From Candidatus Methylumidiphilus alinenensis (lineage in GTDB: Bacteria > Pseudomonadota > Gammaproteobacteria > Methylococcales > Methylococcaceae), in assembly GCA_003242955.1 (NCBI GenBank), contig QJPH01000143.1, positions 15,679 through 79,678 of the forward strand: 64,000 nt of DNA, written 5' to 3'. The position numbers and the translations under genes were made by a program. The notes beneath the pieces were generated by a model. The model was not told where the DNA came from. It saw only the letters and a list, made by a program, of their open reading frames with translations, and searched no databases. Within the stretch, counting starts at the first letter, position 1. Each line of letters begins with the position of its first letter. This document shows positions 1 to 59,716 of this stretch, piece after piece.

Positions 1-1824
1 GATGATGCCGCTGTCCAGTTCCTCTTCTTCCAGAAATTTTTCGGCTAGGGCGATAGACCGACTCGGTTTTGAAAACCGAGTCGGTCTTGCTGGCTCGTCC
101 GGGAACAAGTCGGCAATTTGTTCTGCCGCCCAATGTCGCGTGACTTGAACCTTTCGGCCCCCTTCGACATTTTGCATCGCCAAAGCCAAGGTGCGCAACA
201 CTTCCAAACTTCGCTCGGGTCCGGCGCGTCCGGGGCGCAGTTCGCGGGAACGGGACAGCCACAACAGGATGGACTCGTACAATTCGGCGCGTTGTTCCGG
301 CAAACGCTTTTCGTTCCAATGCACCACCGCCAAGGCGGTCAGCATCACCGTGTTGCGGGCAAGGCGGCGGATGTTGGGGCGGCCATTCAAGGCTTGCAAC
401 AATTCCAGACGATGGGCTTCCGCCACTTTGGTGTCGGTTGGATGCAGGGCACGGCTCCAACGGTCCAGGAAAGTTTCCACCGCATGATCGTTCAAAGCTT
501 CGATAGTGCTAGGCTGGAAATTCGGCAACACCGAGCGGTCTTGATAGCCGGAAGGCCGGGAGGTGACGAGGATGGGGCATTGCTTCCACGTCGCGGCGAC
601 GGCTTCCAGCAATTCGGTGGCGAATTCGCGGGTTTTGCGATCTGAGGCTTCGTCCAGGCCGTCGAACAACAGCAGGCAATCACCCTGATTCAATCTTTCC
701 TTGAACCAGGTTGCATCCAAGCCCCATTCCCGGCTGGCCGATTGGCTGTCAAGAAAATGCACCAGCCATTGCGGGTTTTTGGTGGTGGTGGGTGGTTGCA
801 TTGATTGTTGACCCGCATCACCAACCCCTTTCCAAGAACTACCGCAGACCGACTCGGTTTTGGAAACCGAGTCGGTCTTCATATGGGCGACATGCTCCAA
901 CCATTCCGCAATCGACACAAAAACCGGCAGTAGTGGGCGGGTAAGCCCGAGTAATTTCTCTGCGGCTTTGTCTGTGACACCCAACCGGTCCCCTGCCAAG
1001 GTGTGGGCAATCCAGCGTAGAAAGGTCGTCTTGCCTGCGCCGGGGTCGCCCACGACCACGCGGCGCGGATGGCCTAGGGTGTTTTTCAGCTTGCCACCGC
1101 CCGTGATGTCCAGTTCGATATACAGGTCTGCAATCGGGAAGCGGTGCGCCTTGCCGCTGCCGACATGCAGGCCACGTATGTCGATGTGGGCGCATTCTTC
1201 ATACAATTGGGCTAGATAGCGCTCGGGGTTGGCTTGGGCTTTAGCTTGCGACTTGGCAATGGGTGCAAAGCTCGGGTTATTGACTAGCCAGTCTTTCAAC
1301 GCGGACTCGACTTTGCGTTCCAGTTCCTCGGATGTGGCAAACATGGCACGGATGCGGTTTTGCGTCAACCAAGTTTTAAATTCTTGCAATGCGGCAGTGT
1401 TGCGTTGCACTTCCAGTGCAAGGGCGGGAATTAGGTCATATTTCCCTTGCAAAGCGGCTTCGGTTAAACGGTACGCCTCTTTTTTATCGTCCGGCCATGG
1501 CGCAGTTTCATCAACCACAAACACCAGCAATGCTTTTCGATTGTCCTGCCGAACCGTCCGCTCGCATTCCAGCCGACAAATGCTCTTGTGGTCGGGTTGG
1601 CCTTCCGGCACCCAGCCATAGCGATGGGCGACGATGGCTACGGTCAAATGCGTATCGTCCACCCTCGCCATGCATTCGTCCAATGGCTTGTTATCCTTCG
1701 CTGCCCAATCCTTATTCATGATCGGCAAAAAACCAGACCGTATAGCCGCCGCCTTGGCCTTATCGCGGAACTCTTTCAGGTCCGTAACCGTCGAGGAAAT
1801 AAAGACTTTAGGGGCACCATTCAT
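1..1824 (-). CDS. STAND NTPase: N-terminal DUF4062 (TIR-like) domain fused to a NACHT P-loop module; the 3' end runs off the left edge of the window
   Basis: Absent from the supplied ORF track because its stop lies outside the window. My translation of the minus strand from ATG 1824-1822 stays open to position 1. The N-terminus MNGAPKVFISSTVTDLKEFRDKAK is DUF4062-type. Walker A is VVVGDPGAGKTTFLRWI (GKTT at 1024-1035) and Walker B is CLLLFDGLDE (~655-690). The helical region NTVMLTALAVVHWNEKRLPEQRAELYE is NACHT-like. The + strand ORFs listed between 118 and 1893 are shadow ORFs. Confidence 0.8.
   Translation of the reverse strand, partial: MNGAPKVFISSTVTDLKEFRDKAKAAAIRSGFLPIMNKDWAAKDNKPLDECMARVDDTHLTVAIVAHRYGWVPEGQPDHKSICRLECERTVRQDNRKALLVFVVDETAPWPDDKKEAYRLTEAALQGKYDLIPALALEVQRNTAALQEFKTWLTQNRIRAMFATSEELERKVESALKDWLVNNPSFAPIAKSQAKAQANPERYLAQLYEECAHIDIRGLHVGSGKAHRFPIADLYIELDITGGGKLKNTLGHPRRVVVGDPGAGKTTFLRWIAHTLAGDRLGVTDKAAEKLLGLTRPLLPVFVSIAEWLEHVAHMKTDSVSKTESVCGSSWKGVGDAGQQSMQPPTTTKNPQWLVHFLDSQSASREWGLDATWFKERLNQGDCLLLFDGLDEASDRKTREFATELLEAVAATWKQCPILVTSRPSGYQDRSVLPNFQPSTIEALNDHAVETFLDRWSRALHPTDTKVAEAHRLELLQALNGRPNIRRLARNTVMLTALAVVHWNEKRLPEQRAELYESILLWLSRSRELRPGRAGPERSLEVLRTLALAMQNVEGGRKVQVTRHWAAEQIADLFPDEPARPTRFSKPSRSIALAEKFLEEEELDSGII
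55..87. repeat. 33-nt palindromic element, family P (AGACCGACTCGGTTTT-G-AAAACCGAGTCGGTCT), copy 1, inside the NACHT CDS
   Basis: Perfect 16-bp arms. The same element occurs at 846-878, 53155-53187 and 58662-58695, with a half copy at 54941-54952. 33 nt equals 11 codons, and it is read through on the minus strand as ARPTRFSKPSRS. Confidence 0.9.
846..878. repeat. 33-nt palindromic element, family P, copy 2, inside the NACHT CDS between Walker A and Walker B
   Basis: Sequence is AGACCGACTCGGTTT-TGG-AAACCGAGTCGGTCT. It is read through in a different phase from copy 1, as KTDSVSKTESV, with no stop codon. Confidence 0.9.
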
Positions 1825-3218: not shown

Positions 3219-4181
3219 TCACTCCCAAACCGTATCCGGCTGGGCCAGCTTATCCAGCAATTTGAGATAGCGCAGGTGACGGGCCGGGGCGATTTCGCCA
3301 TTTTCCACCCCCTCGCGCACGGCGCAGCCTTTGTCGTTAATGTGGCGGCAGTCGTTAAAGCGGCAGTGGCCGATATGGGCTTGGAATTCGCGGTAACCCC
3401 AGGCCAAGTCCTGGCCTTTGATTTCGGCCAGGCCAAACACGGCGACACCGGGGCTGTCGATCAAATAGCCACCTTCCGGCAAATTATAAAGCGTTGCGGC
3501 GGTGGTAGTGTGACGGCCTAGGCCACTGCGCTCGGAGATTTCCCCTGTGCGCAGGTTTTTTTCCGGCAACAAAGTATTAGTCAGGGAGGATTTGCCAACG
3601 CCTGATTGGCCTGCAAATATCGAGCAATGCCCATGCAAGGCGTGTTTCAGTTCGACCATGCCGAGTCCCTTGTGTGCACTAACCGGATGGACCGGGTAGC
3701 CGATGCGGACGTAATCATTCAATTCGGCGAGTGCATGATCCCGGTCCTCGGCCAAGTCGATTTTGTTATAGATGATTTCGGCGGGAATCTGGCGAAATTC
3801 ACACACCGCCAGATATTGATCGACCAGCAACCAATCCGGTGCCGGGGAGGGTGAAATGACGATGAACACCCGGTCTAAATTGGCTGCCACCACCTTTAAC
3901 TTACCCGCATAACCAGGGCGGATGAGCATGGAACTGCGCGGCAGGACTTCTTCCACCCGGCCTTGCACCCCATCCTCGCTAGGTGCCCACTTCACCCTAT
4001 CGCCGACCGCCACATCGCCTAAGCGACGGCGGGTTTGGCATAAGATGATGTTGCCGTCCGGCGTTTCCACCGCCAAACCCTGCCCCAAATGTGAGATGAC
4101 CAGACCTTCTAGCCAAGAGCTTGGGGAAGGCGTGCCGGCCTTGGGGTGTTGTGGTGAATTGCGGCGGCCTTTTCCTTTCAT
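3219..4181 (-). CDS. rsgA: Ribosome small-subunit-dependent GTPase A
   Basis: The GTPase motif order is circularly permuted: NKIDL (G4) precedes GQSGVGKSSL (G1). The C-terminal zinc motif is CRFNDCRHINDKGC. The start is set at ATG 4181 (MKGKGRR). The longer tracked ORF overlaps the upstream M48 gene. TAATG gives a 1-nt stop/start overlap. Confidence 0.85.
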   Translation of the reverse strand: MKGKGRRNSPQHPKAGTPSPSSWLEGLVISHLGQGLAVETPDGNIILCQTRRRLGDVAVGDRVKWAPSEDGVQGRVEEVLPRSSMLIRPGYAGKLKVVAANLDRVFIVISPSPAPDWLLVDQYLAVCEFRQIPAEIIYNKIDLAEDRDHALAELNDYVRIGYPVHPVSAHKGLGMVELKHALHGHCSIFAGQSGVGKSSLTNTLLPEKNLRTGEISERSGLGRHTTTAATLYNLPEGGYLIDSPGVAVFGLAEIKGQDLAWGYREFQAHIGHCRFNDCRHINDKGCAVREGVENGEIAPARHLRYLKLLDKLAQPDTVWE

Positions 4182-5422
4182 TAGGACTTCGATTCTAAAT
4201 TGGCGATGCGAATGGCGGCCGGTGGGTGGCTGTAATGGAATGCCGAGTATAATGGGTCGGGCGTCAGTGTGCTGGCGTTGTCGCGGTAGAGCTTGACTAG
4301 GGCGCTGATGAGATCGCGTGGACGTGCGTAAACGGAGGCGAAATCGTCTGCCTCGAATTCGAACTTGCGCTGGAAATAGGCCATCGTCGGTTGCAAAAAC
4401 AGCGTAAACGAAGGCATTGCCAGCATGAACAACAATAAAGCGGTTGAATTGGATTGCTGGCTCACCCCCAGCCCCTCGTAAAACCAGTTTTGCCCCATCA
4501 ACCAACCCAACAGCCCGAGCCCTACCAAGCTGATGACGGCGCTGGTGATCAGCATTTTCAGCACATGCTTGCGTTTGAAGTGTCCCAACTCATGGGCCAG
4601 CACCGCCTCTAATTCCTCATGGCTGAGGGAATTGACCAAGGTATCGAAAAACACAATTCGCTTGTTGTTGCCAATCCCAGTGAAGTAGGCGTTGCCGTGG
4701 CCTGAGCGGCGGGAACCGTCCATGACAAAGATGCCCTTGCTATGAAAGCCGCAACGGCCCAGCAAGGCTTCAATGCGTTCGCGCAAGGTAGCATCCTCCA
4801 ATGGTGAAAACTTATTGAACAGCGGCGCGATCAATGTGGGGAAGGCCCAACTCATTAAAATCGAAAAGCTTTGCAAGATTGCCCAAGCCAAAACCCACCA
4901 CAACGGCCCTACCGTTCCCATCACCCACAAGATCAAGGCCAATAGCGGCCCACCGATGGCTAGCCCTAAAGCCAGTTGCAATAAATGGTCTTTGGCGTAT
5001 TGTAAAGGCGTATTACGATTGAAGCCAAAGCGATCTTCAAGATCGAAGGTCATATAAATGCTGATTGGCAAATCAATTAATTGTATCAGCAGCAAAGTGG
5101 ATAGAATGACGGTCACTCCAGTCAAGATCGTGGGCCATTCAAACCCCATCCAAAATTCTGCCACCCGGTCGATGCCGCCGCCCAGCGTAAACAGCATCAG
5201 TACGGCAAGGCTGACCGCACGGTCAACTTCGCCAAGCTTGGCCTTGGCTAGAGTATAATCGGCCGCCTTTTGGTGTGCCTCCAGCGTAATGCTGTCGCGG
5301 AAAGCAACCGGAACCGAATCGCGATGGGCTAGGACATAGGCGCATTGCCGTCTTGCCAACCAATATTCCACGCCATAGGATATGACGACAGCGAACAGAA
5401 AAATTATTGTAAATGCATTCAT
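4181..5422 (-). CDS. M48 family (Ste24-type) integral-membrane zinc metalloprotease
   Basis: Multiple hydrophobic segments followed by the HELGH zinc motif (LAHELGHFKRKH). Confidence 0.8.
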   Translation of the reverse strand: MNAFTIIFLFAVVISYGVEYWLARRQCAYVLAHRDSVPVAFRDSITLEAHQKAADYTLAKAKLGEVDRAVSLAVLMLFTLGGGIDRVAEFWMGFEWPTILTGVTVILSTLLLIQLIDLPISIYMTFDLEDRFGFNRNTPLQYAKDHLLQLALGLAIGGPLLALILWVMGTVGPLWWVLAWAILQSFSILMSWAFPTLIAPLFNKFSPLEDATLRERIEALLGRCGFHSKGIFVMDGSRRSGHGNAYFTGIGNNKRIVFFDTLVNSLSHEELEAVLAHELGHFKRKHVLKMLITSAVISLVGLGLLGWLMGQNWFYEGLGVSQQSNSTALLLFMLAMPSFTLFLQPTMAYFQRKFEFEADDFASVYARPRDLISALVKLYRDNASTLTPDPLYSAFHYSHPPAAIRIANLESKS

Positions 5423-5514
5423 TGGTAAACCTTGTTGGATTAATTTGGAAATGGAATGCCGCTTTTTTTTGAAGGGATGTTATCCTTAAGGCACTGGATT
5501 AACAAGGCAACAAA

Positions 5515-6060
5515 ATGGCACAAGACCCGCAAAACCTGATCTGGCTCGACTTGGAAATGACCGGGCTCGACCCAAACAACGATGTGATCATCGAAATTGC
5601 CACGGCAATAACGGATAAAAACCTCAATATATTGGCTACAGGACCCGTTTTGGCAGTGCATCAACCCGAGGCATCTTTAGCTTCCATGGATGATTGGAAC
5701 CAAAAACACCACGGAGGTTCCGGCCTCATTCAACGGGTCAGGGATAGTTCGGTGGACGAGGCCGAAGCCGAGCGACTGACATTGGAATTTATTAGTGCTT
5801 GGACACCCCCGAGAACTTCGCCCCTATGCGGCAATAGCATATGCCAGGACCGCCGTTTTCTCTACCGGTGCATGCCAAAACTCGAAGCTTTTTTCCACTA
5901 CCGAAATTTGGATGTCAGTACCGTCAAGGAACTAGCCGCCCGCTGGGCACCGGAAATTAAGAAAAGTGTCAAAAAATCGAACAATCATTTGGCCATGGAT
6001 GACATTCTGGAATCTATCGCCGAGTTGCAATTTTATCGTAATCATTTCTTCAAATTCTGA
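5515..6060 (+). CDS. orn: Oligoribonuclease
   Basis: DEDDh exonuclease start [13 protein letters not shown], 181 aa, with a typical Orn length and C-terminus. Confidence 0.9.
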
Positions 6061-6149
6061 GTTACCGGAAAACTGATGTCTTATTGTTGTCTTATATCAT
6101 CCAATCGCTTAGTATCCCAACTAATATAGTCACCTAACACCGATTTTTC

Positions 6150-6947
6150 ATGTCCGTCCATAGCGCAAATAAAACCATCGAAGATGTCCAAAACAGCGAG
6201 GATACCCGCCGGATCGACATTGACCGGGTTGGTATAAAGTCCATACGCCATCCTGTTCTTTTCCGGCAACGCGACGGCGAATTGCAAGCCACCGTGGCCA
6301 TGTTCGACATGACCGTCAATTTGTCACACGAACAGAAAGGAACCCATATGTCCCGCTTCGTCGAAATTCTCAACGAAGAACTAGGGGAGTTGGACATCCG
6401 TACTTTTCCCCAAGTCATCAGCGATATGGCATCTAGGCTCGAAGCAGACCATGCTTACATCGAAACCCACTTCCCGTTGTTTATTCGGAAGAAGGCGCCA
6501 GTAACCAGTGTGCCCAGTTTGCTGGATTACGAGGTCACCCTAACGGGCGAATGGATAGCAGGTTTGTCTAAACTTTGGCTTAAAGTGGTCGTTCCAGTCA
6601 CCAGTCTTTGCCCCTGTTCCAAGAAGATATCCGACTACGGGGCGCATAACCAGCGCTCCCATGTGACTTTGACGGTGCAACCTAGGGAACTCTTATGGGT
6701 GGAGGATTTGATTGATCTCATCGAAAGGCAGGCATCAAGTCAAATTTATGGCCTGTTAAAGCGTGCCGACGAAAAATATGTCACCGAGCGGGCCTACAAC
6801 AACCCGAAGTTTGTAGAGGACATTGTCCGCGATATCGCCAACGACCTTAATCAAAATAAAGCTATTCTTTATTATAAACTGGAAACCGAAAACTTTGAAT
6901 CCATTCATAACCACTCTGCTTATGCGATTATTGAAAGATTCAAATAA
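6150..6947 (+). CDS. folE2: GTP cyclohydrolase I type 2 (FolE2/MptA family)
   Basis: Motifs [21 protein letters not shown] and SLCPCSK are characteristic of FolE2. Length is 265 aa. Confidence 0.85.
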
Positions 6948-6968
6948 AAAATCACTACGAGGTTATCC

Positions 6969-7964
6969 ATGAAAGCCATACTGATGACTCAGACAGGTGG
7001 GCCAGAACTCCTAACTTTAGCGGATATTCCCGAACCCACGATTACCGAACCGACCCAGATCAAAGTACGCTTGAAAGCCGCCGGGATTAACCCAGTAGAC
7101 ACCAAGCTGCGTAGGCGCGGCGTATTCTATGACAATGCCCTCCCGGCGGTTTTGGGCTGCGATGGTGCGGGTGTGGTGGTGGAGACAGGAAGCGCAGTCG
7201 GCAAATTCAAGGTCGGCGACAACGTATGGTATTGCCATGGAGGCTTGGGCGGCGATCAAGGAAATTATGCCGAGTACAATGTTCTGGACGAGCGCTGGGT
7301 CGCCCATATGCCCAAGACTATCAGCTTTGAAGAAGCGGCAGCGGGGCCTTTGGTATTGATTACCGCCTGGGGCGCACTGTATGACCGGGCTAGGCTACAG
7401 GAATCCAATACCGCGCTGATTCACGCCGGTGCAGGCGGTGTTGGGCATGTCGCCATACAATTGGCCCGGCTCCACGGGGCAAAAGTCATTACAACCGTTG
7501 GAACTGATAACAAAGTCGCACTGACAAGGTCTTGGGGTGCCGACGAGGTAATCAACTACCGGGACCAGGATTTTGTCGAAGCCGTCAACCGATTGACCGA
7601 CGGTAGAGGAGCTGAGGTGGTTCTGGAATCGGTGGGCCCGGAGGTTTTTGAACGCAGCATCAATTGCACCGCCTATTTTGGCACGATAGTCACCTTGCTT
7701 GAAATCGGCAATGCCAGCCTTAAAGAAGCGCGCCTAAGAAATTTGCGCATTGGTTTTGAACTGATGCTGACCCCCCAGCTACGCAAACTGAACGTCGGCC
7801 ATGACCTGCAAGTAGACATGCTGAACCAATGTGGAAAATGGATCGACCAAGGCAAGCTGAAAATCCATGTGGGCAAGACCTTCGCCTTAGCTGAGGCCGC
7901 CCAGGCACACGCGCTGATCGAAGAAGGTCACGTGACCGGAAAGCTGGTGTTGAAAATTGATTGA
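6969..7964 (+). CDS. Medium-chain dehydrogenase/reductase (quinone oxidoreductase-like, NAD(P)-binding)
   Basis: GroES-like N-terminal part, Rossmann motif HAGAGGVGHVAIQLA, 331 aa. Confidence 0.75.
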   Translation: MKAILMTQTGGPELLTLADIPEPTITEPTQIKVRLKAAGINPVDTKLRRRGVFYDNALPAVLGCDGAGVVVETGSAVGKFKVGDNVWYCHGGLGGDQGNYAEYNVLDERWVAHMPKTISFEEAAAGPLVLITAWGALYDRARLQESNTALIHAGAGGVGHVAIQLARLHGAKVITTVGTDNKVALTRSWGADEVINYRDQDFVEAVNRLTDGRGAEVVLESVGPEVFERSINCTAYFGTIVTLLEIGNASLKEARLRNLRIGFELMLTPQLRKLNVGHDLQVDMLNQCGKWIDQGKLKIHVGKTFALAEAAQAHALIEEGHVTGKLVLKID

Positions 7965-7989
7965 TAGATGTTACGGAACTGTATAGGCC

Positions 7990-8073
7990 GTAGCCCGGAT
8001 GAAGTGCAGCGAAATTTGGGGGGTGCCATGTTCTCCCGGATTTTCGCTCGCCAAGCGGCTCCATCCGGGCTAC
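7990..8073. repeat. REP-like element, family G (GTAGCCCGGATGRAG ... CTCCATCCGGGCTAC)
   Basis: 15-bp inverted termini are visible. A second copy lies at 8535-8624. Confidence 0.8.
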
Positions 8074-8103
8074 AACACTGCGATTTAGCATCACTGTTAG
8101 TAA

Positions 8104-8267
8104 GGTGATAACCCATAAAAAACATCCCATCCAAAGGCCAAGCTGGGGCTTGGCGCTACCAAAGGAACGCCAAGCCCGAGCTTGGCAAGGTGATTTGCGG
8201 AGGAATTGTTCGTGATTTTCATGGACAATTCATTTCGGTTTTGGTGGGTTCATTATTGGAAATCACC
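8104..8267. mobile_element. MITE family D, 164-bp copy
   Basis: Terminal inverted repeats are GGTGATAACCCATAA / TTATTGGAAATCACC. It is flanked by a TAA duplication (8101-8103 and 8268-8270). Near-identical copies lie at 10000-10164 and, inverted, at 35843-36007. Confidence 0.85.
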
Positions 8268-8301
8268 TAACATCAGCGATAAACTCGAAGAGGAATTTGC
8301 A

Positions 8302-9999: not shown

Positions 10000-10164
10000 G
10001 GTGATATCCAATAAAGAACATCCCATCCAAAGGCCAAGCTGGGGCTTGGCGCACCTGGAAGGAACGCCAAGCCCCAGCTTGGCAAGGTGATTTGCGGAGG
10101 AATTGTTCGTGATTTTCGTGGACAATTGATTTCGGTTTTGGTGGATTCATTATTGGAAATCACC
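10000..10164. mobile_element. MITE family D, 165-bp copy, inserted at the bioA stop codon
   Basis: TIRs are GGTGATATCCAATAA / TTATTGGAAATCACC. The TAA duplication sits at 9997-9999 (which is the bioA stop codon) and 10165-10167. Confidence 0.85.
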
Positions 10165-19576: not shown

Positions 19577-19695
19577 GGCCTTGGTCATCGTTCAGCCCGA
19601 TGAATGAGTTTGTGGCGACTCGTCGCCGCATGGTTGGAAAAGCGTCGACGAGTCGCCGCACTCCCCATTTGGTAGGCTGAACGATGACCAAGGCC
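19577..19695. mobile_element. MITE family E (TIR GGCCTTGGTCATCGTTCAGCC)
   Basis: Termini are GGCCTTGGTCATCGTTCAGCC ... GGCTGAACGATGACCAAGGCC, with an internal GCGGCGACTCGTCGCCGC hairpin. A second copy lies at 53500-53623. Confidence 0.8.
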
Positions 19696-19758: not shown

Positions 19759-19835
19759 TGGTCGGGGTGAGAGGATTCGAACCTCCGGCCACTGCCTCCC
19801 GAAAGCAGTGCTCTACCAGGCTGAGCTACACCCCG
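19759..19835 (-). tRNA. tRNA-Pro (anticodon CGG)
   Basis: The reverse complement CGGGGTGTAGCTCAGCCTGGTAGAGCACTGCTTTCGGGAGGCAGTGGCCGGAGGTTCGAATCCTCTCACCCCGACCA folds as a cloverleaf. The acceptor stem has 7 bp, the anticodon loop is TTCGGGA, the T-loop is GGTTCGAATCC, and CCA is encoded. Confidence 0.9.
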
Positions 19836-35842: not shown

Positions 35843-36007
35843 GGTGATTTCCAATAATGAATCCACCAAAACCGAAATGAATTGTCCACGAGAATCACAA
35901 ACACCTTCTTCGCAAATCACCTTGCCAAGCTGGAGCTTGGCGTTCCTTCTGGGAGCGCCAAGCACCAGCTTGGCCTTTGGATGGGATGTTCTTTATTGGA
36001 TATTACC
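35843..36007. mobile_element. MITE family D, 165-bp copy in inverted orientation
   Basis: TIRs are GGTGATTTCCAATAA / TTATTGGATATTACC. The TTA duplication lies at 35840-35842 and 36008-36010, which is the reverse complement of the TAA seen at the other two copies. Confidence 0.85.
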
Positions 36008-50503: not shown

Positions 50504-50725
50504 GACCATAGTTTAACTCTAATTTTTTATTTGGTTCAACGTTAAGGTGGTTTCCAATAAAGTTTACCCTCCTTTGGGGAAATCCCCCCTAACCCCCCTT
50601 TTGCAAAGGGGGGAGTGGTATGCTCATTTCTGGAATACACCTAATCGTGATTTTGCCTGAATGACCAACCGCACTAATTCAGGGTAAAATAAGCATTTAA
50701 GTTTACTTGACGCTACTGGAAACTC

Positions 50726-53106
50726 TTGAACAATCAAAATTATTTTGCCACGGCCCCATTGGGTTTCGAACTTTTGCTCGCCGACGAATTGCGTGGTTTG
50801 GGTGCCGATGAGGTTAAAGACGTCCGGGCGGGGGTTTCTTTCTCCGCCGACATCGAAACCGCCTACCGGGTTGTTTGTGGTCGCGGTTAGCCAATCGCGT
50901 GTTGTTAAAGCTGGCAAGCTTTCCCGCCGCCACTCCCGAGGAACTATACACCGAAGTCAGTGAAATCGACTGGGCGGTTTTGATGCTGCCTGAAGCAACG
51001 TTGGCCGTGGATTTCACCAGTTCCCGATCCCGCATCACCCACACTCAATTTGGCGCGCAAAAGGTCAAGGATGCCATCGTCGATCAGTTCCGCGAACTGT
51101 GCGGTATCCGCCCTTCGGTGCGTTTGGACCGTCCAGACATTCGGGTGAATGTTTATTTGGACAAGGACATTGCCAGCGTTGCCCTGGATATTTCCGGCGA
51201 GAGCCTGCACAAGCGCGGTTATCGGTTGGATGGCGGAATTGCCCCGCTGAAGGAAAACCTAGCCGCCGCCGTTCTGCTGCGAGCGGGTTGGCCTGATATT
51301 GCTAAAACGGGAGGCGAATTGGTCGATCCCATGTGTGGTTCTGGAACCCTGCTGATCGAAGCCGCTTGGATGTCTGCTGATATTGCGCCAGGGCTGATGC
51401 GGGATTATTTTGGCTTTCAGGGCTGGAAGCATCATCGCGCCGACTTGTGGGAATCTCTGTTAGAGGAAGCCAAAACCCGCCGCGAAGCCGGTTTGCGGAA
51501 GCTGCCGACGATCACCGGCTATGATTTTGACCGCCATGCCGTCCATGCCGCATTGGACAATATCGAGCGGGCCGGATTGCACGGATTGATCCATGTCGAA
51601 AAGCAAGAGGTCATAAACGCACGGCCTCGCAAATACGGCTATACTTCTGAATTAAGCCGTCATTCCGGCATGGATCGCCGGAATCCAGATTGCAGGGATG
51701 CCACCAATCCATGCCGGAACGACGATGGAACCCTTAATTCAACAGCAGAGACCTTAGACTCCTTCCCTTTTATAAAGGAAAAAAAGGGGGATTTTCAACC
51801 TACCGGACTGGTCGTGGTCAACCCCCCCTATGGCGAAAGGCTAGGCGAGGCGGATGAACTGGCCGGTTTGTATAGCGAACTGGGTGGTGTCCTAAGAACC
51901 CATTTCCAAGCTTGGAAAGCCAGCGTATTGACCGGCAACCCGGAACTGGCGTTCAAACTGGGGATTCGTGCGAGGAAATTCTACAAACTCTACAACGGGG
52001 CGATAGAATGCAAATTGTTCAATTTCGATATCGAACCAGAGCGATTTTTTACGCCCCACGAGGATGAAACCGGGCTTTCTGAGGAAGCCCGCAAATCCAA
52101 GCAACTGATGCGCCAAGCCCAAAGTCTGGCAAACAAGGGGGAAACCGGTTCAGGGGCGGAAATGTTTGCCAATCGTTTGCGTAAAAATGCAAAAAACTTG
52201 GGGCGGTGGGCTAGGCAAAACAACGTGTCTTGTTACCGGCTCTATGATGCCGACCTTCCCGAATATGCGGTGGCGGTGGATTTGTACCAAGGCGAGAAAA
52301 CTTGGCTGCATGTGCAGGAATACCAGGCACCGGCCATCATTGACCCCGCCAAGGCCGAGCACCGTTTGGTGGAAGCCTTGTCAGTCATGCCACAGGTGTT
52401 GGAGATTCCACAAGGACAACTATTCCTGAAAATCCGCCAGCGCCAGAGGGGCTCCGACCAATATGAGAAGCAGGCCGACGTAGGCCGATTCCATCAGGTG
52501 GACGAAGGCGTTTGCCGTTTTTGGGTCAACTTTGAAGACTATCTGGACACCGGCCTGTTTCTGGACCACCGCCCGACCCGGCTGATGATCCAGCGATTGG
52601 CCAAGGACAAGCATTTCCTCAACCTCTTTGCCTATACCGGAACGGCCACCGTCCATGCGGCTTTGGGCGGTGCCCGTTCGACGACCAGTGTGGACATGTC
52701 GCATACCTATATGGAATGGGCGCGGCGGAACTTGGAACTGAACGGCATCAAAGGTTATCATCACGAACTGATCCAGGCCGATTGCCTGGCTTGGCTGGAT
52801 GCCCAGGTAGATAAGGGTGGCAACCGGTTTGATTTGATATTCCTAGACCCGCCCACCTTCTCCAATTCCAAGCGCATGGCAGGTGCTTTTGACGCACAGC
52901 GGGATCATGTGGAAATCTTACGCAAAACCGCCAGATTGCTATCGCCCGGCGGCCTGTTAATCTTTTCCACCAATTTCCGTAAATTCAAACTCGATTATGA
53001 TGCTTTGCAAGATTTTGTGGTCGAGGACATCAGCGGCAAGACCATCCCCAAGGATTTTGAACGCAACCCGAGAATCCATTATTGTTGGACGATCAGAAAT
53101 AAATAG
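50726..53106 (+). CDS. rlmL: Bifunctional 23S rRNA (G2445-N2)/(G2069-N7) methyltransferase RlmKL, with an apparent 1-nt frameshift near 50873-50877 and an in-frame MITE-derived insert
   Basis: The tracked ORF 50875-53106 begins LWSRLANRVLL and carries NPPYGERL, YRLYDADLPEY and DPPTFSNSKR. The expected N-terminus (TTG 50726: MNNQNYFATAPLGFELLLADELRGLGADEVKDVRAGVSFSADIETAYRVV) lies in another frame and stops at TAG 50888-50890. Confidence 0.85.
51649..51740. mobile_element. Internally deleted family A MITE derivative (92 nt) inside the rlmKL reading frame
   Basis: GAATTAAGCCGTCATTCCGGCATGGATCGCCGGAATCCAGATTGCAGGGATGCCACCAATCCATGCCGGAACGAC...CTTAATTC. Its first ~65 nt are near-identical to 17066-17130. 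It is translated as ELSRHSGMDRRNPDCRDATNPCRNDDGTLNS. Confidence 0.85.
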
Positions 53107-53154: not shown

Positions 53155-53187
53155 AGACCGACTCGGTTTTAAAATCCGAGTCGGTCT
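53155..53187. repeat. Family P palindrome, intergenic copy 3 (33 nt)
   Basis: AGACCGACTCGG-TTTTAAAAT-CCGAGTCGGTCT, 49 nt after the rlmKL stop. It may act as a transcript-end hairpin, but no T-tract follows. Confidence 0.85.
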
Positions 53188-53499: not shown

Positions 53500-53623
53500 G
53501 GCCTTGGTCATCGTTCAGCCCACCCAATGTGGAGTGCGGCGACTCGTCGCCGCTTTCCGAACCATGCGGCGACGAGTCGCCGCACTCCACAAACTCACCC
53601 ATCGGGCTGAACGATGACCATGG
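53500..53623. mobile_element. MITE family E, copy 2
   Basis: GGCCTTGGTCATCGTTCAGCC ... GGCTGAACGATGACCATGG. The interior is the inverted version of the 19577-19695 copy. Confidence 0.8.
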
Positions 53624-53683: not shown

Positions 53684-53762
53684 GGAGTGCAAGCCTTGCC
53701 TTGCCTGCACACGCCATCGCAAGGCAAGCCTTGCACTCCCGCATCACTTTTAATCGCACCCC
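53684..53762. repeat. REP-like hairpin element, family F, copy 2
   Basis: GGAGTGCAAGCCTTGCCTTGC ... GCAAGGCAAGCCTTGCACTCCCGCATCACTTTTAATCGCACCCC. Compare with 2079-2157. Confidence 0.8.
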
Positions 53763-54667: not shown

Positions 54668-54953
54668 AGGGACGCTAGTTCGAGCCGTGCGTGTCAGGGA
54701 GGTTTTTTTGGGTTGTTGTATGAAGATGATGCTCCGTCCAATGCTGTTTGATGTTAAGCAGCGGTAGGCCGGAATAAGTCCGCGCCAGTGGGCGTTTCCG
54801 GCGAGCTGACGGGCCGAATGCCGGAAACGGTCGTTTGCACGACCTTATTCCGGCCTACGTCCAATCCTGTGTCAACAGCATGGGGCGACCGGCCGGTCGC
54901 CCCCACCACCGTACATTTAGTGCGCCGTCGCTTAAGTTAAAGACCGACTCGAT

Positions 54954-55592
54954 TTATTGTTTCTCAGGTTCGCTTTCAGTCCCTGGTTTTCTCATGGCAT
55001 CCATGTTGTGGCCACCATGGCCGCCCGCACCCGCACCACCGCCGCTGTTGCCGGGGCCACCGCCACTGCCACCGGCACCGGCACTGACACCTTCTTTTTG
55101 ACGCATGTTGATGGCGACGCCAGAAGCCTTGGTGATGTTTTGCTCGGTTAGCCCACCCAAAGCAATTGCGCCATCCACGACATCGGTGGTCACTGCACTC
55201 ACATCCATGACATCCGCTATGGGACTGGTCACCACGGCCTTAACCGGGTCGCTCAGCAACGCCTCAGCGGGTGGATGGGCCGAGATGACAATCGGGTATG
55301 TCGTACCCGCCGGCACGGTGATGGTGTAATGAGCATTGGTGAAATGAGTCGTGTGGACGACGTTGCCGGATTTGTCCCGCACATCAAGCGAGCCTTGTTC
55401 GATGGGTCCGTTCTTATTGCTGATCTTCCCGCTGATTCTCGCTTCCATTTTGGACGCTGAACTGCTGGAATAGCTACCGTCTTCGCCGCAACCGGCCATC
55501 AGCCCAAAGCCCAATACTGAAACCGCCACTAGTGCGCATTTCAGGATATCAAATCTTGTTTTTGTAATAAGAAGTGTTTTCGCCATTTTCAA
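54954..55592 (-). CDS. Putative lipoprotein with a Gly/His-rich C-terminal tail
   Basis: Signal peptide with a lipobox (GLMAGC). The C-terminus is GAGGSGGGPGNSGGGAGAGGHGGHNMD. No enzymatic motif was seen. Confidence 0.5.
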   Translation of the reverse strand: MKMAKTLLITKTRFDILKCALVAVSVLGFGLMAGCGEDGSYSSSSASKMEARISGKISNKNGPIEQGSLDVRDKSGNVVHTTHFTNAHYTITVPAGTTYPIVISAHPPAEALLSDPVKAVVTSPIADVMDVSAVTTDVVDGAIALGGLTEQNITKASGVAINMRQKEGVSAGAGGSGGGPGNSGGGAGAGGHGGHNMDAMRKPGTESEPEKQ

Positions 55593-57258: not shown

Positions 57259-58476
57259 ATGAATCGTAGAAACACCGTCGGAGTCAAGGTCGGTCGCGTC
57301 CAGATCGGCGGCGGCGCGCCTGTCGTCGTCCAGTCCATGACCAATACCGACACGGCCGACATTGAAGGGACCGTACAGCAAGTTTATGAACTGGCCCGTG
57401 CCGGCTCGGAACTGGTCCGCATCACGGTGGACAGGGACGAGTCTGCCGCCGCCGTCGCGCATATTCGTGAAAAACTGGATGCAAGGGGCTGCGACGTGCC
57501 GCTGATCGGAGACTTCCACTTCAACGGTCATAAATTGCTGGAGTCCTACCCTGACTGTGCCGAGGCACTGGGCAAGTACCGCATCAACCCCGGCAACGTA
57601 GGCCGAGGTTCCAAGCGCGACCCGCAATTTGCACAAATGGTCGAATTCGCCTGCCGCTACAACAAGCCAGTGCGCATTGGCGTCAACTGGGGCAGCCTTG
57701 ATCAAAGCGTGTTGGCCCGGTTGCTGGATGAAAACGCGCAGTTGGACGAACCCCAACCGTTGCCTGAAGTAATGCGCGAGGCGGTCATCACTTCCGCTTT
57801 GGAAAGCGCCGACAAGGCAGTGGAACTGGGCCTGCCCAAAGACCGTATCGTCTTGTCGTGCAAGATGAGCGGGGTGCAAGAGTTGATTGCTGTTTACGAA
57901 TCCATGGCTGCCCGCACAGATTATGCGTTGCACCTAGGTTTGACCGAAGCCGGCATGGGCTCTAAGGGTATCGTTGCCTCAACTGCGGCCCTATCTGTGT
58001 TGATGCAACAAGGCATAGGCGACACCATCCGAATTTCCCTGACCCCTGAACCGGGGGGGGATCGTAGCTTGGAAGTCATCGTCGCCCAAGAAATCCTGCA
58101 AACGCTGGGAATCCGTTCGTTTACCCCAATGGTCATCTCCTGCCCCGGTTGCGGACGCACCACCAGCGACTATTTCCAGAAATTAGCCCAGCAGATTCAA
58201 AGCCATATGCGCCACCAAATGCCGATCTGGAAAAAACAATACAAAGGCGTTGAAGAAATGCATGTTGCAGTGATGGGGTGCGTGGTCAACGGACCCGGCG
58301 AAAGCAAGAACGCGAATATCGGCATTTCCTTGCCCGGCACCGGCGAACAACCCGTCGCCCCGGTTTTCGAAGACGGAGTTAAAACCGTCACACTCAAGGG
58401 CGACAACATCGCCGGCGATTTCCAAGAAATTGTCGAACGTTATGTGCAAAGCCATTATGGGCAGACAGCAGCTTGA
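57259..58476 (+). CDS. ispG: 4-hydroxy-3-methylbut-2-en-1-yl diphosphate synthase (flavodoxin)
   Basis: [11 protein letters not shown], the RISLT region, and Fe-S ligand contexts SCPGCGRT and GCVVNGPGE. Length is 405 aa. Confidence 0.95.
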
Positions 58477-58661: not shown

Positions 58662-58695
58662 AGACCGACTCGGTTTTTAAAAACCGAGCCGGTCT
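58662..58695. repeat. Family P palindrome, intergenic copy 4 (34 nt); possible bidirectional terminator between convergent ispG and sapC-like genes
   Basis: AGACCGACTCGGTTTTT/AAAAACCGAGCCGGTCT with one arm mismatch, followed by TTGTCTT. Confidence 0.8.
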
Positions 58696-58700
58696 TTGTC

Positions 58701-59468
58701 TTAATGCAAAGCCACTGCTGCTGGTACTTTAGCTGCTTTGCGTTCAGCCAAACGGCGGAAATTAGCCAAGGACGCAAGGTGGAAATAAATCCAAGCCAAC
58801 TCGCCAGATTTGAAAAGTTCCTGAACTTTGTCCGCATCCAATTGGAGAAGTGCGGCTTCGTCGACGGCCCAAAGCCCACTCAGGGTGAACGACTTGCCAT
58901 CTGCTGTGGCTTGGGCTTGTTGTTCCTTCAATAAACCCAAATCCACTAGTTTGCTGCAAAAATCGACGGTTCGTTGCGATTGTAAATTGTAGTCGGTCAA
59001 AAACGACAGCGTTTGGTTCAAGAAAACCGAAGGCTTGTCACCGACGAACAAGGGTTCACCTTGGTCTTCCCCCAGCCAAGGGCAGGACTCATCCACACAA
59101 ACCCATGGCTGGGTTGGGTTTTGTGGGTTGTCACCCAGCACGAAAGGATAGCGGCGCACGAAAGCAGGCACATAATTAGCTTTCCAAGCAAGCCCTTCAT
59201 CCAAAAAAAGGTTTTCTGAGTTTTCCAAGCCCAAGACCGCGACGGGGTTGAAAGTGCCATTTTCGCCTTGGGCGAATACCACTGGGTATTCCCTACAACA
59301 TTCGACAAATTCCACTCCCACTAGGGGTACGGAATTAGTGTGAGCTGCAAAGCTTTGGTCGGGCGGGGTTCCAATCTTGAGTCCACCGTGCCGCTGCGGG
59401 TTGAGTACGGTAATTTCCCGATAAAACAACAAAGTGACATTGCTCGCGTCTTGCTGATTTTCTGACAT
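58701..59468 (-). CDS. SapC family protein
   Basis: The start is set at ATG 59468 (MSENQQDASNVTLLFYREITVLNPQRHGGLKI). It carries YPVVFAQ and YVPAFVRRYPFVL motifs typical of SapC. Confidence 0.65.
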   Translation of the reverse strand: MSENQQDASNVTLLFYREITVLNPQRHGGLKIGTPPDQSFAAHTNSVPLVGVEFVECCREYPVVFAQGENGTFNPVAVLGLENSENLFLDEGLAWKANYVPAFVRRYPFVLGDNPQNPTQPWVCVDESCPWLGEDQGEPLFVGDKPSVFLNQTLSFLTDYNLQSQRTVDFCSKLVDLGLLKEQQAQATADGKSFTLSGLWAVDEAALLQLDADKVQELFKSGELAWIYFHLASLANFRRLAERKAAKVPAAVALH

Positions 59469-59716
59469 GATTTTTTCCTTATGTGGAGTTGTTTGGTGTA
59501 CAGCATTATTATATTTGTCGGACTCATGCTGCAAAATGTTACCAGAAATGCCTAATGGCTGAAACAGGCTAACATTACGTGTTTGACTTTCATCGCCGGG
59601 GATGCCAACAAATTTACACCTGAATGAATGTACGGTTTGATAAATCACTCGCAGACTACCCCTTGGATGTGCCAGAATTTACACTTAAATCGGCAGCTTG
59701 AGGAAACATTTCGGCC

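Follow-up and report, generated by a model that had tools for sequence, protein, structure and literature searches.

A 33-nt palindrome carried twice in frame by a NACHT gene: a probable REP-type element with a candidate RAYT-like transposase

Two short palindromes in the reading frame of a NACHT gene of Candidatus Methylumidiphilus alinenensis probably represent a REP-type non-autonomous mobile element, 33 nt in length, whose family has its own RAYT-like HUH/Y1 tyrosine transposase; the NACHT copies would be tolerated survivors. The same palindrome flanks a RAYT-like gene and has a sister with which it covaries, which together point to a REP family that has a cognate transposase and behaves like the Rickettsia palindromic elements (RPEs). 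It is the cognate RAYT-like transposase that argues for a REP rather than an orphan RPE.

The element and its copies in coding DNA

The 33-mer has the consensus AGACCGACTCGGTTT-NNN-AAACCGAGTCGGTCT, and two intragenic and two intergenic copies are present in the window, the whole 64-kb stretch of DNA that was analysed:

55-87, minus-strand reading RPTRFSKPSRS, aa 580-590: copy A (site 2), in the linker after the NACHT/helical region
846-878, minus-strand reading KTDSVSKTESV, aa 316-326: copy B (site 1), in the NACHT NTPase domain
53155-53187: intergenic copy with one arm mismatch, 49 nt 3' of the stop of ORF 50875-53106
54941-54956, plus strand: half copy, a single arm with two mismatches, probably a decayed element
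58662-58695: intergenic copy with one arm mismatch, flanked by the convergent ORFs 57259-58476 (plus) and 58701-59648 (minus)

Matches to the arm AGACCGACTCGGTTTT number nine in the window, the half copy included, compared with 0.04 expected from 100 dinucleotide shuffles, none of which reached nine. The arm is exact on both sides at 55-70 (plus) and 72-87 (minus), and has one mismatch at 846-861 (plus) and 863-878 (minus), at 53155/53172 and likewise at 58662/58680. An earlier note on this DNA had placed 33-nt palindromes at these four positions, and all are real; the palindrome at 55-87 is perfect as 16+1+16, but at 846-878 the perfect symmetry is limited to arms of 15 bp around a loop of 3 nt, and the copy at 58662-58695 is 34 nt long, not 33. 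On single-strand folding both coding copies give a 15-bp hairpin, at -17.9 kcal/mol for DNA (z -7 to -10) and -25.9 kcal/mol for RNA. Each arm is itself a small palindrome, ACCGA-C/G-TCGGT, and the arms contain no stop codon in any frame. Rfam has no family for the hairpin in the window or in 10 further loci, where its sole matches lie elsewhere and are a tRNA and a fluoride riboswitch.

Public genomes and metagenomes yielded over 220 additional copies, nearly all of exactly 33 nt; this length is seen in 124 of the 127 metagenome copies among the matches listed, the search pattern having tolerated 31-35 nt. If a copy counts as deep when it is 30 aa or more inside an ORF of 300 aa or longer, then among the matches listed 20 of 95 copies are deep in GTDB genomes, with 17 of 40 in Methylococcaceae metagenome-assembled genomes (MAGs), and 14 of 127 are deep in metagenome contigs. 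A single MAG can hold at least 12-16 copies; the Methylococcaceae MAGs include CAIZPP, CAIOOA, CAIYXP and CAIWDB. In Methylococcaceae the coding copies are found in PurL, Lhr, a CysJ-like protein, MMPL, methylases and STAND/CHAT proteins, and host genes identified by Pfam or PDB homology in the whole set also include DNA methylases, PKS, NRPS, AsnB, radical SAM and TIR/CHAT/NACHT proteins. One phage copy lies in a tape-measure-like ORF; BLAST of GenBank plasmids and phages with the NACHT region and a 35-mer gave zero matches. The host genes, and the insert positions within them, are unrelated, and the flanks of the Methylococcaceae copies are not conserved. A large share of these further copies is in frame within real genes. 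The comparison drawn in the earlier note with the frame-preserving colonisation of ORFs by RPEs is supported, each check proposed there having turned out in its favour. Some intergenic copies stand right after stop codons or between convergent genes, and locus L015 has twin copies 1.4 kb apart with no transposase between them.

The coding copies are not spread evenly over the reading phases. By manual count, about 23 of 31 independent coding insertions are read in the phase [KQ]TDSVxKTESV, five in the DRLGF phase and three in the RPTRF phase, and on these manual counts the bias has a binomial P of 1e-4 against the stop-corrected expectation. A stop is possible only in the RPTRF phase, through a TGA, TAA or TAG loop. 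Stop codons were rejected as the source of the bias, since the TDSV and DRLGF phases are equally open and yet stand at 23 against 5.

Could the hairpins be retained for a local function, rather than being merely tolerated as selfish DNA? Such a role would not conflict with a RAYT origin; we regard it as rather unlikely. The hairpin might serve as a pause, a terminator, an mRNA stabiliser or a protein-binding site (with two palindromic half sites of 11 bp); alternatively, the host might profit from the TDSVxKTESV peptide as a linker or as a site for modification. At five orthologous filled sites (CysJ-like L013/L214, PurL L007/L108, L086/L151, Lhr L029/L065 and L042/L098) the flanks are 77-87% identical yet 29-30 of the 30 arm bases are identical, and the loop is the same in L086/L151 and different in the other four pairs. 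Ascertainment, however, inflates this conservation of the arms, as a pattern that needs intact arms was used to find both members of every pair, and gene conversion among copies, or re-insertion at a hot spot, would look alike. The self-palindromic arms are also kept in both sister families, the strong phase bias could mean a preferred peptide, and the position of some intergenic copies directly after stops or between convergent genes would suit a local role. Against this, host genes and positions are unrelated, most orthologues are fine without the insert, and there is no Rfam match.

A candidate cognate transposase

The same palindrome flanks a RAYT-like HUH/Y1 gene in four metagenome or MAG loci (L114, L188, L220 and L221), and in three of the four a copy also lies inside the transposase gene:

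L114, 108-683, minus strand: transposase ORF, 191 residues, NCBIfam NF047646 (REP-associated tyrosine transposase), E 7e-17
L114, 20-52, 729-761 and 927-959: palindrome copies
L188, 974-1585, plus strand: transposase ORF, NCBIfam NF047646, E 3e-14
L188, 922, 1174 and 1585: palindrome copies
L220, 3950, 4219 and 4626: palindrome copies
L221, 2951, 3207 and 3618: palindrome copies
L125, 3002-3436, minus strand: partial RAYT-like ORF, 18 nt from a copy at 3454-3484

The ORFs of L114 and L188 match the whole NF047646 profile (positions 7-146 of 146 for the match at E 7e-17), but the transposase scores stay below the curated cut-offs, with 61.7 bits where NCBIfam asks for 80 and 22.6 bits where Pfam Y1_Tnp asks for 23. 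The HUH (NHFHLLV) and YIHxNP motifs are conserved, with H58, H60 and Y122 invariant, and JGI names relatives 'REP element-mobilizing transposase RayT'; the RAYT relatives number roughly 4,400. The geometry is shared, with one copy 20-50 nt upstream of the gene and another at its stop codon, in four or five independent loci on contigs of 49-60% G+C. The gene often lies within a type I restriction-modification (R-M) locus. No RAYT relatives were found on IMG/VR viral contigs.

A different palindrome, AGACCGCTGCGGTTT-NNN-AAACCGCAGCGGTCT, stands on either side of the sister transposases P0140 and P0143 and also inside them, and P0142 has one imperfect copy of this sister palindrome upstream. Four positions per arm covary between the two palindromes, with pairing kept and the length still 33 nt; the sister arms read AGACCGCTGCGG...CCGCAGCGGTCT, compared with ...CGACTCGG...CCGAGTCG... 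in the query lineage.

A mover other than the RAYT-like enzyme, with the RAYT surroundings merely a favoured neighbourhood for a mobile element, is distinctly improbable. A DDE transposase might then move the element as a minimal MITE, or template switching during replication might copy the hairpin. No RAYT was found in the 64-kb window or in the 40 Methylococcaceae loci among the matches listed, so that its link to the window's genome is indirect; one RAYT relative, 71% identical (L224/L225), has no such palindrome nearby; and an element found within the RAYT gene itself lands there as it does anywhere else. Such a neighbourhood would have to account for the same flanking geometry in four or five independent loci of 49-60% G+C, and for a covarying sister palindrome placed with the same geometry at a sister transposase, which is the signature of cognate REP-RAYT pairs. 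As regards a DDE transposase, the entire element is a single palindrome, and at the Methylococcaceae copies neither target duplications nor direct end repeats were seen, nor any terminal inverted repeats apart from the hairpin. The IS200-type gene that lies some 650 nt from a copy in L061 is ordinary and was judged unrelated; an IS200 TnpA query found only this gene among all ORFs and missed the RAYT. Element-deleted junctions, searched for in the DNA compared, gave a single filled/empty pair, that of the RAYT genes of L188 (filled) and L114 (empty), which at 76% identity are too diverged for the insertion boundaries to be fixed.

How, then, would a palindrome with a RAYT-like transposase come to be carried in frame by unrelated genes? 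Acting in trans on single-stranded DNA hairpins, the enzyme would disperse the element through the genome. Landing in a gene would leave the reading frame unbroken, since a unit of 33 nt amounts to 11 codons and the arms are stop-free in all frames. Selection would purge copies harmful to the protein, and those that survive would lie in loops at the surface and in linkers between domains, read for the most part in the hydrophilic phase [KQ]TDSVxKTESV. The NACHT copies would be survivors of this kind, each adding 11 residues to one of two flexible loops that are repeat hot spots of the gene family. We infer that this candidate transposase moves the element and that a RAYT is present in the window's genome; the coding copies are presumably translated, and may be neutral. 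To our knowledge, REP mobility by RAYTs has not been shown in vivo for any family.

The NACHT host gene

The host gene reads off the start of the window from an ATG at 1824, so that 608 of its 1034 codons are visible; its protein is identical to P0001 (1034 aa), which has all three domains.

1-1824, minus strand: N-terminal 608 codons of a DUF4062 / NACHT / FGE-sulfatase STAND protein, ORF open throughout
1024-1041, minus strand: Walker A, GAGKTT, aa 262-267; G262, G264, K265 and T267 invariant in alignments
790-845, minus strand: repeat-like filler adjoining copy B, about aa 327-345, CGSSWKGVGDAGQQSMQ...
649-675, minus strand: Walker B, LLLFDGLDE, aa 384-392; G389, D391 and E392 invariant in alignments

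Both readings were verified on the minus strand, the two copies lying in different phases and neither introducing a stop, as first reported. The phase of copy B is the commonest coding phase of the family and that of copy A the rarest. The peptide sequences across the elements, as they would be translated, are HMKTDSVSKTESVC and EPARPTRFSKPSRSIAL. Copy B, at aa 316-326, falls between Walker A (aa 262-267) and Walker B (aa 384-392), which confirms the placement from which an effect on the NTPase had been suspected.

The AlphaFold model of the host protein has a mean pLDDT of 87.5. At site 1, residues 316-324 form the end of a helix (305-324) and residues 325-326 begin a coil (325-351); pLDDT is 41-48 for residues 321-340, and below 50 for 325-339. 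Site 2 lies in a coil (574-588) with pLDDT of 59-72, as for residues 571-590. Taken together, both inserted peptides are predicted to fall in low-confidence coil, in flexible loops between helices of an otherwise confident model, as would be expected of the surface loops that the earlier note had envisaged. Any effect of copy B on the putative NTPase is probably small, and the putative NACHT protein probably still works.

In alignments, both segments are absent from P0004/L001, P0007/L002 and all more distant homologues. P0005 (NCBI) and P0006 (ENA) have the same peptide at site 2 only, and the alleles of L005 (ENA) match those of the window. P0001-P0008 stem from boreal-lake samples. Site 1 in L003 and L004 holds different repeats in place of copy B, and site 2 is occupied by other repeats in L003, L004 and P0010. 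As judged from these alignments, both coding copies are insertions relative to the orthologues, and both sites are hot spots, filled in sister alleles by other repeat families. That the 11-residue segments are inserted is therefore upheld, whereas their being precise insertions is not, because both sites are hot spots and site 1 adjoins filler that the empty alleles lack. The window allele is about 23 residues longer there than the empty alleles (copy B plus filler), and at site 2 the difference from empty alleles is 39 nt, not 33. To the eye, the filler at 790-845 is similar to the right-hand half of the G-rich repeat of L004 at site 1, and may derive from an older repeat; blastn-short found no second copy of it in the DNA compared, and it is disordered in the AlphaFold model.

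The earlier note had also weighed whether the gene is a decayed pseudogene, in which case the in-frame state would be accidental. This is very improbable and largely refuted. The sister allele L004/P0008 does have a frameshift at site 2, caused by the other repeats; the window's gene, however, is open over its 608 visible codons, P0001 runs to 1034 aa, the Walker A and B motifs are intact and invariant, dN/dS against orthologues is 0.17-0.30, and the same element stands in frame in PurL and other housekeeping genes. Purifying selection acts on the NACHT host gene. That the segments are ancestral coding sequence, a chance likeness or an assembly artefact is refuted, with no point found in its favour and a probability close to nil, by the nine arm matches against 0.04, by identical DNA that recurs between genes, within unrelated genes and across several phyla, by the lack of the segments in most orthologues, and by the same alleles in independent assemblies and in long-read contigs of up to 1 Mb.

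Relation to known systems and significance

REP/RAYT systems were reportedly described by Nunvar in 2010, Bertels and Rainey in 2011 and Ton-Hoang in 2012. Like them, the 33-mer is a short, G+C-rich hairpin present in many copies, with one candidate HUH/Y1 gene flanked by the same repeat and with covariation of repeat and transposase between sister lineages, and it can be read as a minimal REPIN of two inverted 15-nt units (the comparison with REPtrons and REPINs uses parts of PMC3337134 and PMC3733652). It differs in being a perfect palindrome with self-palindromic arms and a fixed length of 33 nt. According to the part of PMC3733652 used here, the described REP superfamilies carry a terminal GTAG or CGTC tetranucleotide; neither tag nor its complement is present in the 33-mer, which thus falls outside both superfamilies. 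Classical REPs are extragenic, whereas at least 20 of the 95 genome copies and 14 of the 127 metagenome copies lie deep in long ORFs with Pfam domains, and at least 17 of the 40 Methylococcaceae copies among the matches listed are intragenic and in frame.

Further differences concern distribution. According to the abstract of the RAREFAN preprint (10.1101/2022.05.22.493013), REPIN-RAYT systems are mostly inherited vertically, a prevailing view to which one REP core shared across phyla runs counter; the core of the 33-mer occurs in Gammaproteobacteria, Desulfobacterota, Chloroflexota and Armatimonadota. Mis-binning was for the most part rejected as the explanation, on the strength of contigs of 250 kb to 1.4 Mb, G+C contents of 52-60% and lineage-specific conserved flanks, and is plausible only for small contigs such as L090.

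The closest precedent lies in the intragenic GTAG/CGTC REPs of Opitutus terrae, Thauera and R. conorii (RPE-4 and RPE-6; Di Nocera et al. 2013, PMC3733652, in part). In that account these 20-40 bp repeats lie wholly within ORFs, hit some genes twice and are argued to fall in linkers or loops, and over half of these insertions consist of dimers or grouped repeats that encode 20-30 residues. The 33-mer shares short repeats within ORFs, double-hit genes and placement in loops and linkers, and differs in being a tagless member of another sequence family with a copy inside its own transposase gene; no phase bias or fixed 11-codon unit is described in the part of PMC3733652 used here. Nor is a mobilising enzyme for intragenic copies named in the parts of PMC10969869 and PMC3733652 used. 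The earlier note held palindromes within ORFs to be uncommon outside Rickettsia; short intragenic REPs had already been described elsewhere (PMC3733652).

With PARCELs the 33-mer shares coding DNA of dyad symmetry that is thought to be horizontally transferred between distant microbes. In PARCELs, however, a motif of 25 residues is repeated in tandem, the ORFs have no known function and many of them carry membrane-targeting sequences, whereas the 33-mer forms single dispersed hairpins in housekeeping and defence genes. With RPEs it shares palindromic repeats in frame in many unrelated functional genes, and an extra peptide at fold-compatible positions. We know of no cognate transposase reported for RPEs. 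They are about 150 bp long (Ogata et al. 2000, 2002, as summarised in the part of PMC10969869 used), whereas the 33-mer has 33 nt (11 aa), a candidate transposase and free-living hosts of several phyla. It works like an RPE and is not a member of that group, from which the described length and host range set it apart.

Beyond its identification as a REP, the element invites a broader reading, which we offer very tentatively: that this lineage has become adapted to coding DNA as its habitat, travels across phyla with a RAYT in type I R-M loci, and provides for loop remodelling addressable by the RAYT. The features behind it are the fixed 11-codon unit, the stop-free arms and the benign hydrophilic phase, with the in-frame copy inside its own transposase gene and the constancy of the arms while host genes diverge. 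The recurrent swapping of repeat families at the same two NACHT sites hints at loop remodelling. If this reading is true, intragenic hairpins would be hot spots, open to the RAYT, that time and again remodel the loops of large defence proteins, namely NACHT, CHAT and TIR STAND proteins, Lhr and methylases.

In annotation, TDSVxKTESV, DRLGFxNRVG and RPTRFxKPSRS are to be taken as signs of inserts derived from a repeat and not as conserved motifs. Until now, protein-coding palindromes have counted as an oddity of Rickettsia and a handful of other genomes; in abundant lake methanotrophs the 11-codon element shows this habit often, and it comes with a candidate transposase and a covarying sister pair. 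A small element with such a transposase and sister pair makes it testable how hairpins may enter genes, why certain phases survive, and whether such inserts alter the loops of NTPases and defence proteins.

The palindrome and its NACHT host gene

The arm AGACCGACTCGGTTTT is matched nine times in the window at two or fewer mismatches, against 0.04 expected from shuffles. Two complete palindromes of 33 nt (the 33-mer) lie in a NACHT coding sequence and two more at 53155 and 58662, as the earlier note described; of the two coding copies that it called perfect, copy A is so and copy B, with its 3-nt loop, is not.

Features of the window
1824 to base 1, minus strand: NACHT gene, ATG at 1824, leaving the window at base 1, 608 codons visible
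55-87: complete 33-mer (copy A, site 2), perfect 16+1+16, read as RPTRFSKPSRS, aa 580-590
846-878: complete 33-mer (copy B, site 1), 15-bp arms and 3-nt loop, read as KTDSVSKTESV, aa 316-326
aa 262-267 and aa 384-392 of the NACHT protein: Walker A and Walker B
53155-53187: complete 33-mer
58662-58695: complete 33-mer, 34 nt
54941: decayed half copy of the 33-mer
2078-2137, 53684-53739; 8137-8186, 10033-10083, 35924-35974; 19611-19660, 53528-53591; 51658-51724: other hairpin-repeat families
19762-19835, minus strand: tRNA gene, the sole Rfam match in the window

Conservation among the window copies ends with the palindrome, save for a frequent A before and T after it. Both arms are themselves palindromic (ACCGA-C/G-TCGGT), and the single strand folds as a 15-bp hairpin far below shuffles in energy (-17.9 kcal/mol as DNA, -25.9 kcal/mol as RNA). 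REP-like elements are unusually abundant in the genome: the window holds at least four other hairpin-repeat families (GGAGTGCAAGCCTTGCCTTGC, GCCAAGCTGGGGCTTGGCG, TGTGGAGTGCGGCGACTCGTCGCCGC and CGTCATTCCGGCATGGATCGCCGGAATCC), one copy of which, at 19611-19660, lies some 100 nt from the tRNA gene.

The visible codons encode exactly the N-terminal part of P0001, which has 1034 aa and combines DUF4062, NACHT and FGE-sulfatase domains. As previously noted, its two palindromes are read in different phases, neither with a stop, and copy B falls between Walker A and Walker B. An alignment of 25 homologues, together with the DNA of five orthologous alleles (L001-L005), shows that both segments are insertions: they are absent from L001 and L002, whose proteins are 73-75% identical, and from all remoter homologues. 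L005 carries the same alleles as the window at both sites, and of the two peptides the homologues P0005 and P0006 have only that of site 2. The proposal of precise 11-residue insertions thus holds for insertion; precision is not demonstrable, since at site 2 the window allele exceeds the empty alleles by 39 nt and copy B adjoins about 56 nt of repeat-like filler at site 1. In the sister alleles L003 and L004, other G-rich hairpin repeats occupy exactly the same two positions, implying that both act as hot spots at which several repeat families have settled. In the L004 allele (protein P0008) about 150 nt of such repeats shift the frame at site 2 (L004 1825-2063), so some NACHT alleles have been inactivated by their repeat load.

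The window gene is otherwise healthy and not the decayed pseudogene that the earlier note had considered: it has an open frame and invariant Walker A and B motifs, and its dN/dS of 0.17-0.30 against four orthologues shows that purifying selection acts on it. The inserts appear to be structurally tolerated. In a confident AlphaFold2 model of P0001 (57 homologues, mean pLDDT 87.5, pTM 0.74), site 1 is placed where helix 305-324 ends in coil 325-351, with residues 325-339 below pLDDT 50, and site 2 in coil 574-588 at pLDDT 59-72, in keeping with the suggested loop positions.

Two further observations concern this gene. A third repeat hot spot in the orthologues, C-terminal of the NACHT domain (alignment columns ~975-1040) and absent from the window allele, holds CCCCTCTCCCCCGAGGGGAGAGGGG, with peptides like PLSPPGRGVGERG (L002 5062-5098, L003 2191-2227, L065 3838-3874, L075 4646-4682); this repeat also occurs inside Lhr and FGE-sulfatase ORFs. 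Positions 1-1988 of the window are identical to L005 around both REP sites and markedly different at ~aa 100-150, within alleles 92% identical overall in DNA (94% for full-length P0001 and P0002 proteins), a pattern that suggests recombination between them.

Distribution, residence in genes and reading phase

The wider copy count suggested by the earlier note came, in pattern scans, to at least 94 loci in species-representative genomes and at least 118 further loci in metagenomes, with many unrelated host genes, and to one IMG/VR viral contig with two copies. Length is exactly 33 nt in 124 of the 127 metagenome copies listed, for a pattern that admitted 31-35. Carriers among the matches listed are Methylococcaceae MAGs from stratified lakes (the closest named relatives of the window being Candidatus Methylumidiphilus), Syntrophobacteraceae, other Desulfobacterota, Chloroflexota, an Armatimonadota MAG and another Pseudomonadota MAG, with G+C from 44 to 64% and contigs up to 1.4 Mb.

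Conservation in Methylococcaceae copies is limited to 33-35 nt. In Desulfobacterota it extends to the flanks, the 33-mer there forming the centre of an imperfect palindrome some 100 nt long, which in Syntrophobacteraceae and related MAGs reads GGCnCAGGCAA...ATCC[33-mer]CCCATCTTGGACGAT...TTGCCAnGCGCC (L021, L036, L039, L056, L082, L096, L058, L060, L066) and matches no Rfam family. Sharing across phyla is not peculiar to the 33-mer, since the repeat CCCCCCTTTTGCAAAGGGGGG, encoding a PPFAKGG-type peptide, is likewise common to Methylococcaceae, Syntrophobacteraceae and groundwater Deltaproteobacteria loci (L003 1830-1862; window 50593-50613; L067, L094, L065, L029).

Residence deep in genes, at least 30 codons inside an ORF of at least 300 aa, is seen for 20 of the 95 genome copies listed (17/40 in Methylococcaceae, 3/55 elsewhere) and 14 of the 127 listed from metagenomes. 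By Pfam and PDB comparison the hosts are real and unrelated genes, and the copies lie mostly between annotated domains. They include PurL (a variable stretch aligned to ~residues 405-412 of Salmonella PurL), Lhr helicase, a CysJ-like flavoprotein (at the hinge between flavodoxin and FAD domains), MMPL, DNA methylases, asparagine synthase, a radical SAM protein, PKS and NRPS linkers, several TIR/CHAT/NACHT/FGE-sulfatase proteins and a phage tape-measure-like ORF. The viral contig (L101, IMGVR_UViG_3300045970_000708; 63% G+C) has its two copies within 4952-8275, one of them in frame (VKTDSVAKTESVS) towards the C-terminal end of a tape-measure-like ORF of 1108 aa.

The coding copies strongly favour one reading phase. 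Counted by hand, with orthologous and duplicate sites collapsed, independent coding events number ~23 for [KQ]TDSVxKTESV, 5 for DRLGFxNRVG and 3 for RPTRFxKPSRS; on these hand counts P is 1e-4 against a stop-corrected expectation and 4e-6 against thirds. Stop codons cannot account for the contrast of 23 with 5, and the simplest reading is a selection filter favouring the hydrophilic peptide. At five filled sites shared by orthologues, flank identity is 77-87%, yet the arms match at 29-30 of 30 positions, a figure inflated by how the copies were found; four of these sites have different loops. The arm identity may be due to selection, to gene conversion or to re-insertion.

A candidate cognate transposase

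Two loci, L114 and L188, came to light in the search for empty sites; there the flanks of a copy encode YCLxRNHFHLLVRI. The two ORFs, of 191 and 203 aa, contain the HUH and YIHxNP motifs and match the whole NCBIfam profile 'REP-associated tyrosine transposase' (RAYT) at E values of 7e-17 and 3e-14, under the curated cut-off; many of their ~4,400 relatives are named RayT by JGI. At L114, L188, L220 (the Armatimonadota MAG, 60% G+C) and L221, one 33-mer lies 20-50 nt upstream of the RAYT gene, and another lies at its stop codon or overlaps it. Three of the four genes, all save that of L114, hold a third in frame just after the HUH motif, in each RAYT lineage's own variant; either insertions recur at this position, as at a hot spot, or an old insert there has been kept matched to the copies that flank the gene.

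RAYT loci
L188 1174-1206, L220 4219-4251, L221 3207-3239, L222 3210-3242: REP copy inside the RAYT gene
L220 5215-6243, L222 2949-3697, L223 2955-2987: sister RAYT with sister palindrome
L220 2713-7536, L221 1059-6618, L114 108-2203, L188 483-2110: RAYT-like gene in a type I restriction-modification locus

Two sister RAYTs, P0140 and P0143 (60-61% identical), show this arrangement with a sister palindrome, AGACCGCTGCGGTTT-NNN-AAACCGCAGCGGTCT, which lies on both sides of the gene and inside it. Four positions per arm have changed together in this palindrome, leaving it 33 nt long and stop-free with self-palindromic arms; a third, P0142 (67% identical), has a single imperfect upstream copy. Palindrome and RAYT-like transposase are thus associated both physically and by covariation. 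In L220 both RAYT-REP pairs stand side by side. No such palindrome accompanies a relative with 71% identity (L224/L225). In four loci of differing G+C the RAYT-like gene has hsdS on one side and, on the other, an AlbA_2/Schlafen-like gene together with hsdR, a setting that could help to explain the spread across phyla.

No RAYT was found in the 64-kb window or the Methylococcaceae loci sampled, and no relatives on viral contigs; the enzyme is presumably encoded elsewhere in the window's own genome. A partial RAYT-like ORF adjoins a 33-mer in L125. A TnpA gene of the ordinary IS200 type (L061 6400-6909) stands ~650 nt from a 33-mer, probably by coincidence.

Mechanism and precedents

The best-supported explanation is that the 33-mer makes up a REP family served by a cognate RAYT. 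IS200/IS605 transposases and E. coli TnpA-REP act on single-stranded hairpins, and by analogy a RAYT-like enzyme would be expected to act on, and so mobilise, the single-stranded 33-mer hairpin. As a stop-free unit of 11 codons it would insert without breaking the frame, and the copies that survive selection would be those in loops and linkers, mostly of a single phase; these are presumably translated and neutral.

For the Rickettsia palindromic elements (RPEs), to which the earlier note likened the 33-mer, we know of no reported cognate transposase. The likeness holds for in-frame residence, of which RPEs are the classic example, and not for membership, RPEs being ~150 bp according to PMC10969869, against 33 nt here. 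The nearest precedent, in PMC3733652, is the intragenic GTAG/CGTC REPs of 20-40 bp in ORFs of Opitutus terrae, Thauera and R. conorii, for which linkers and loops were also argued; having neither tag, the 33-mer lies outside both superfamilies. New here are a sequence family built as a nested and perfectly symmetric unit of 33 nt, the large proportion of Methylococcaceae copies that lie within genes, the bias in reading phase, the REP copy inside a transposase gene, the covarying sister pair and the occurrence of one REP core in several phyla.

The earlier interpretation is thereby supported and sharpened to that of a presumably translated REP with a candidate RAYT, which introduces no new principle and gives a small system, amenable to experiment, in which to address a puzzle of long standing.
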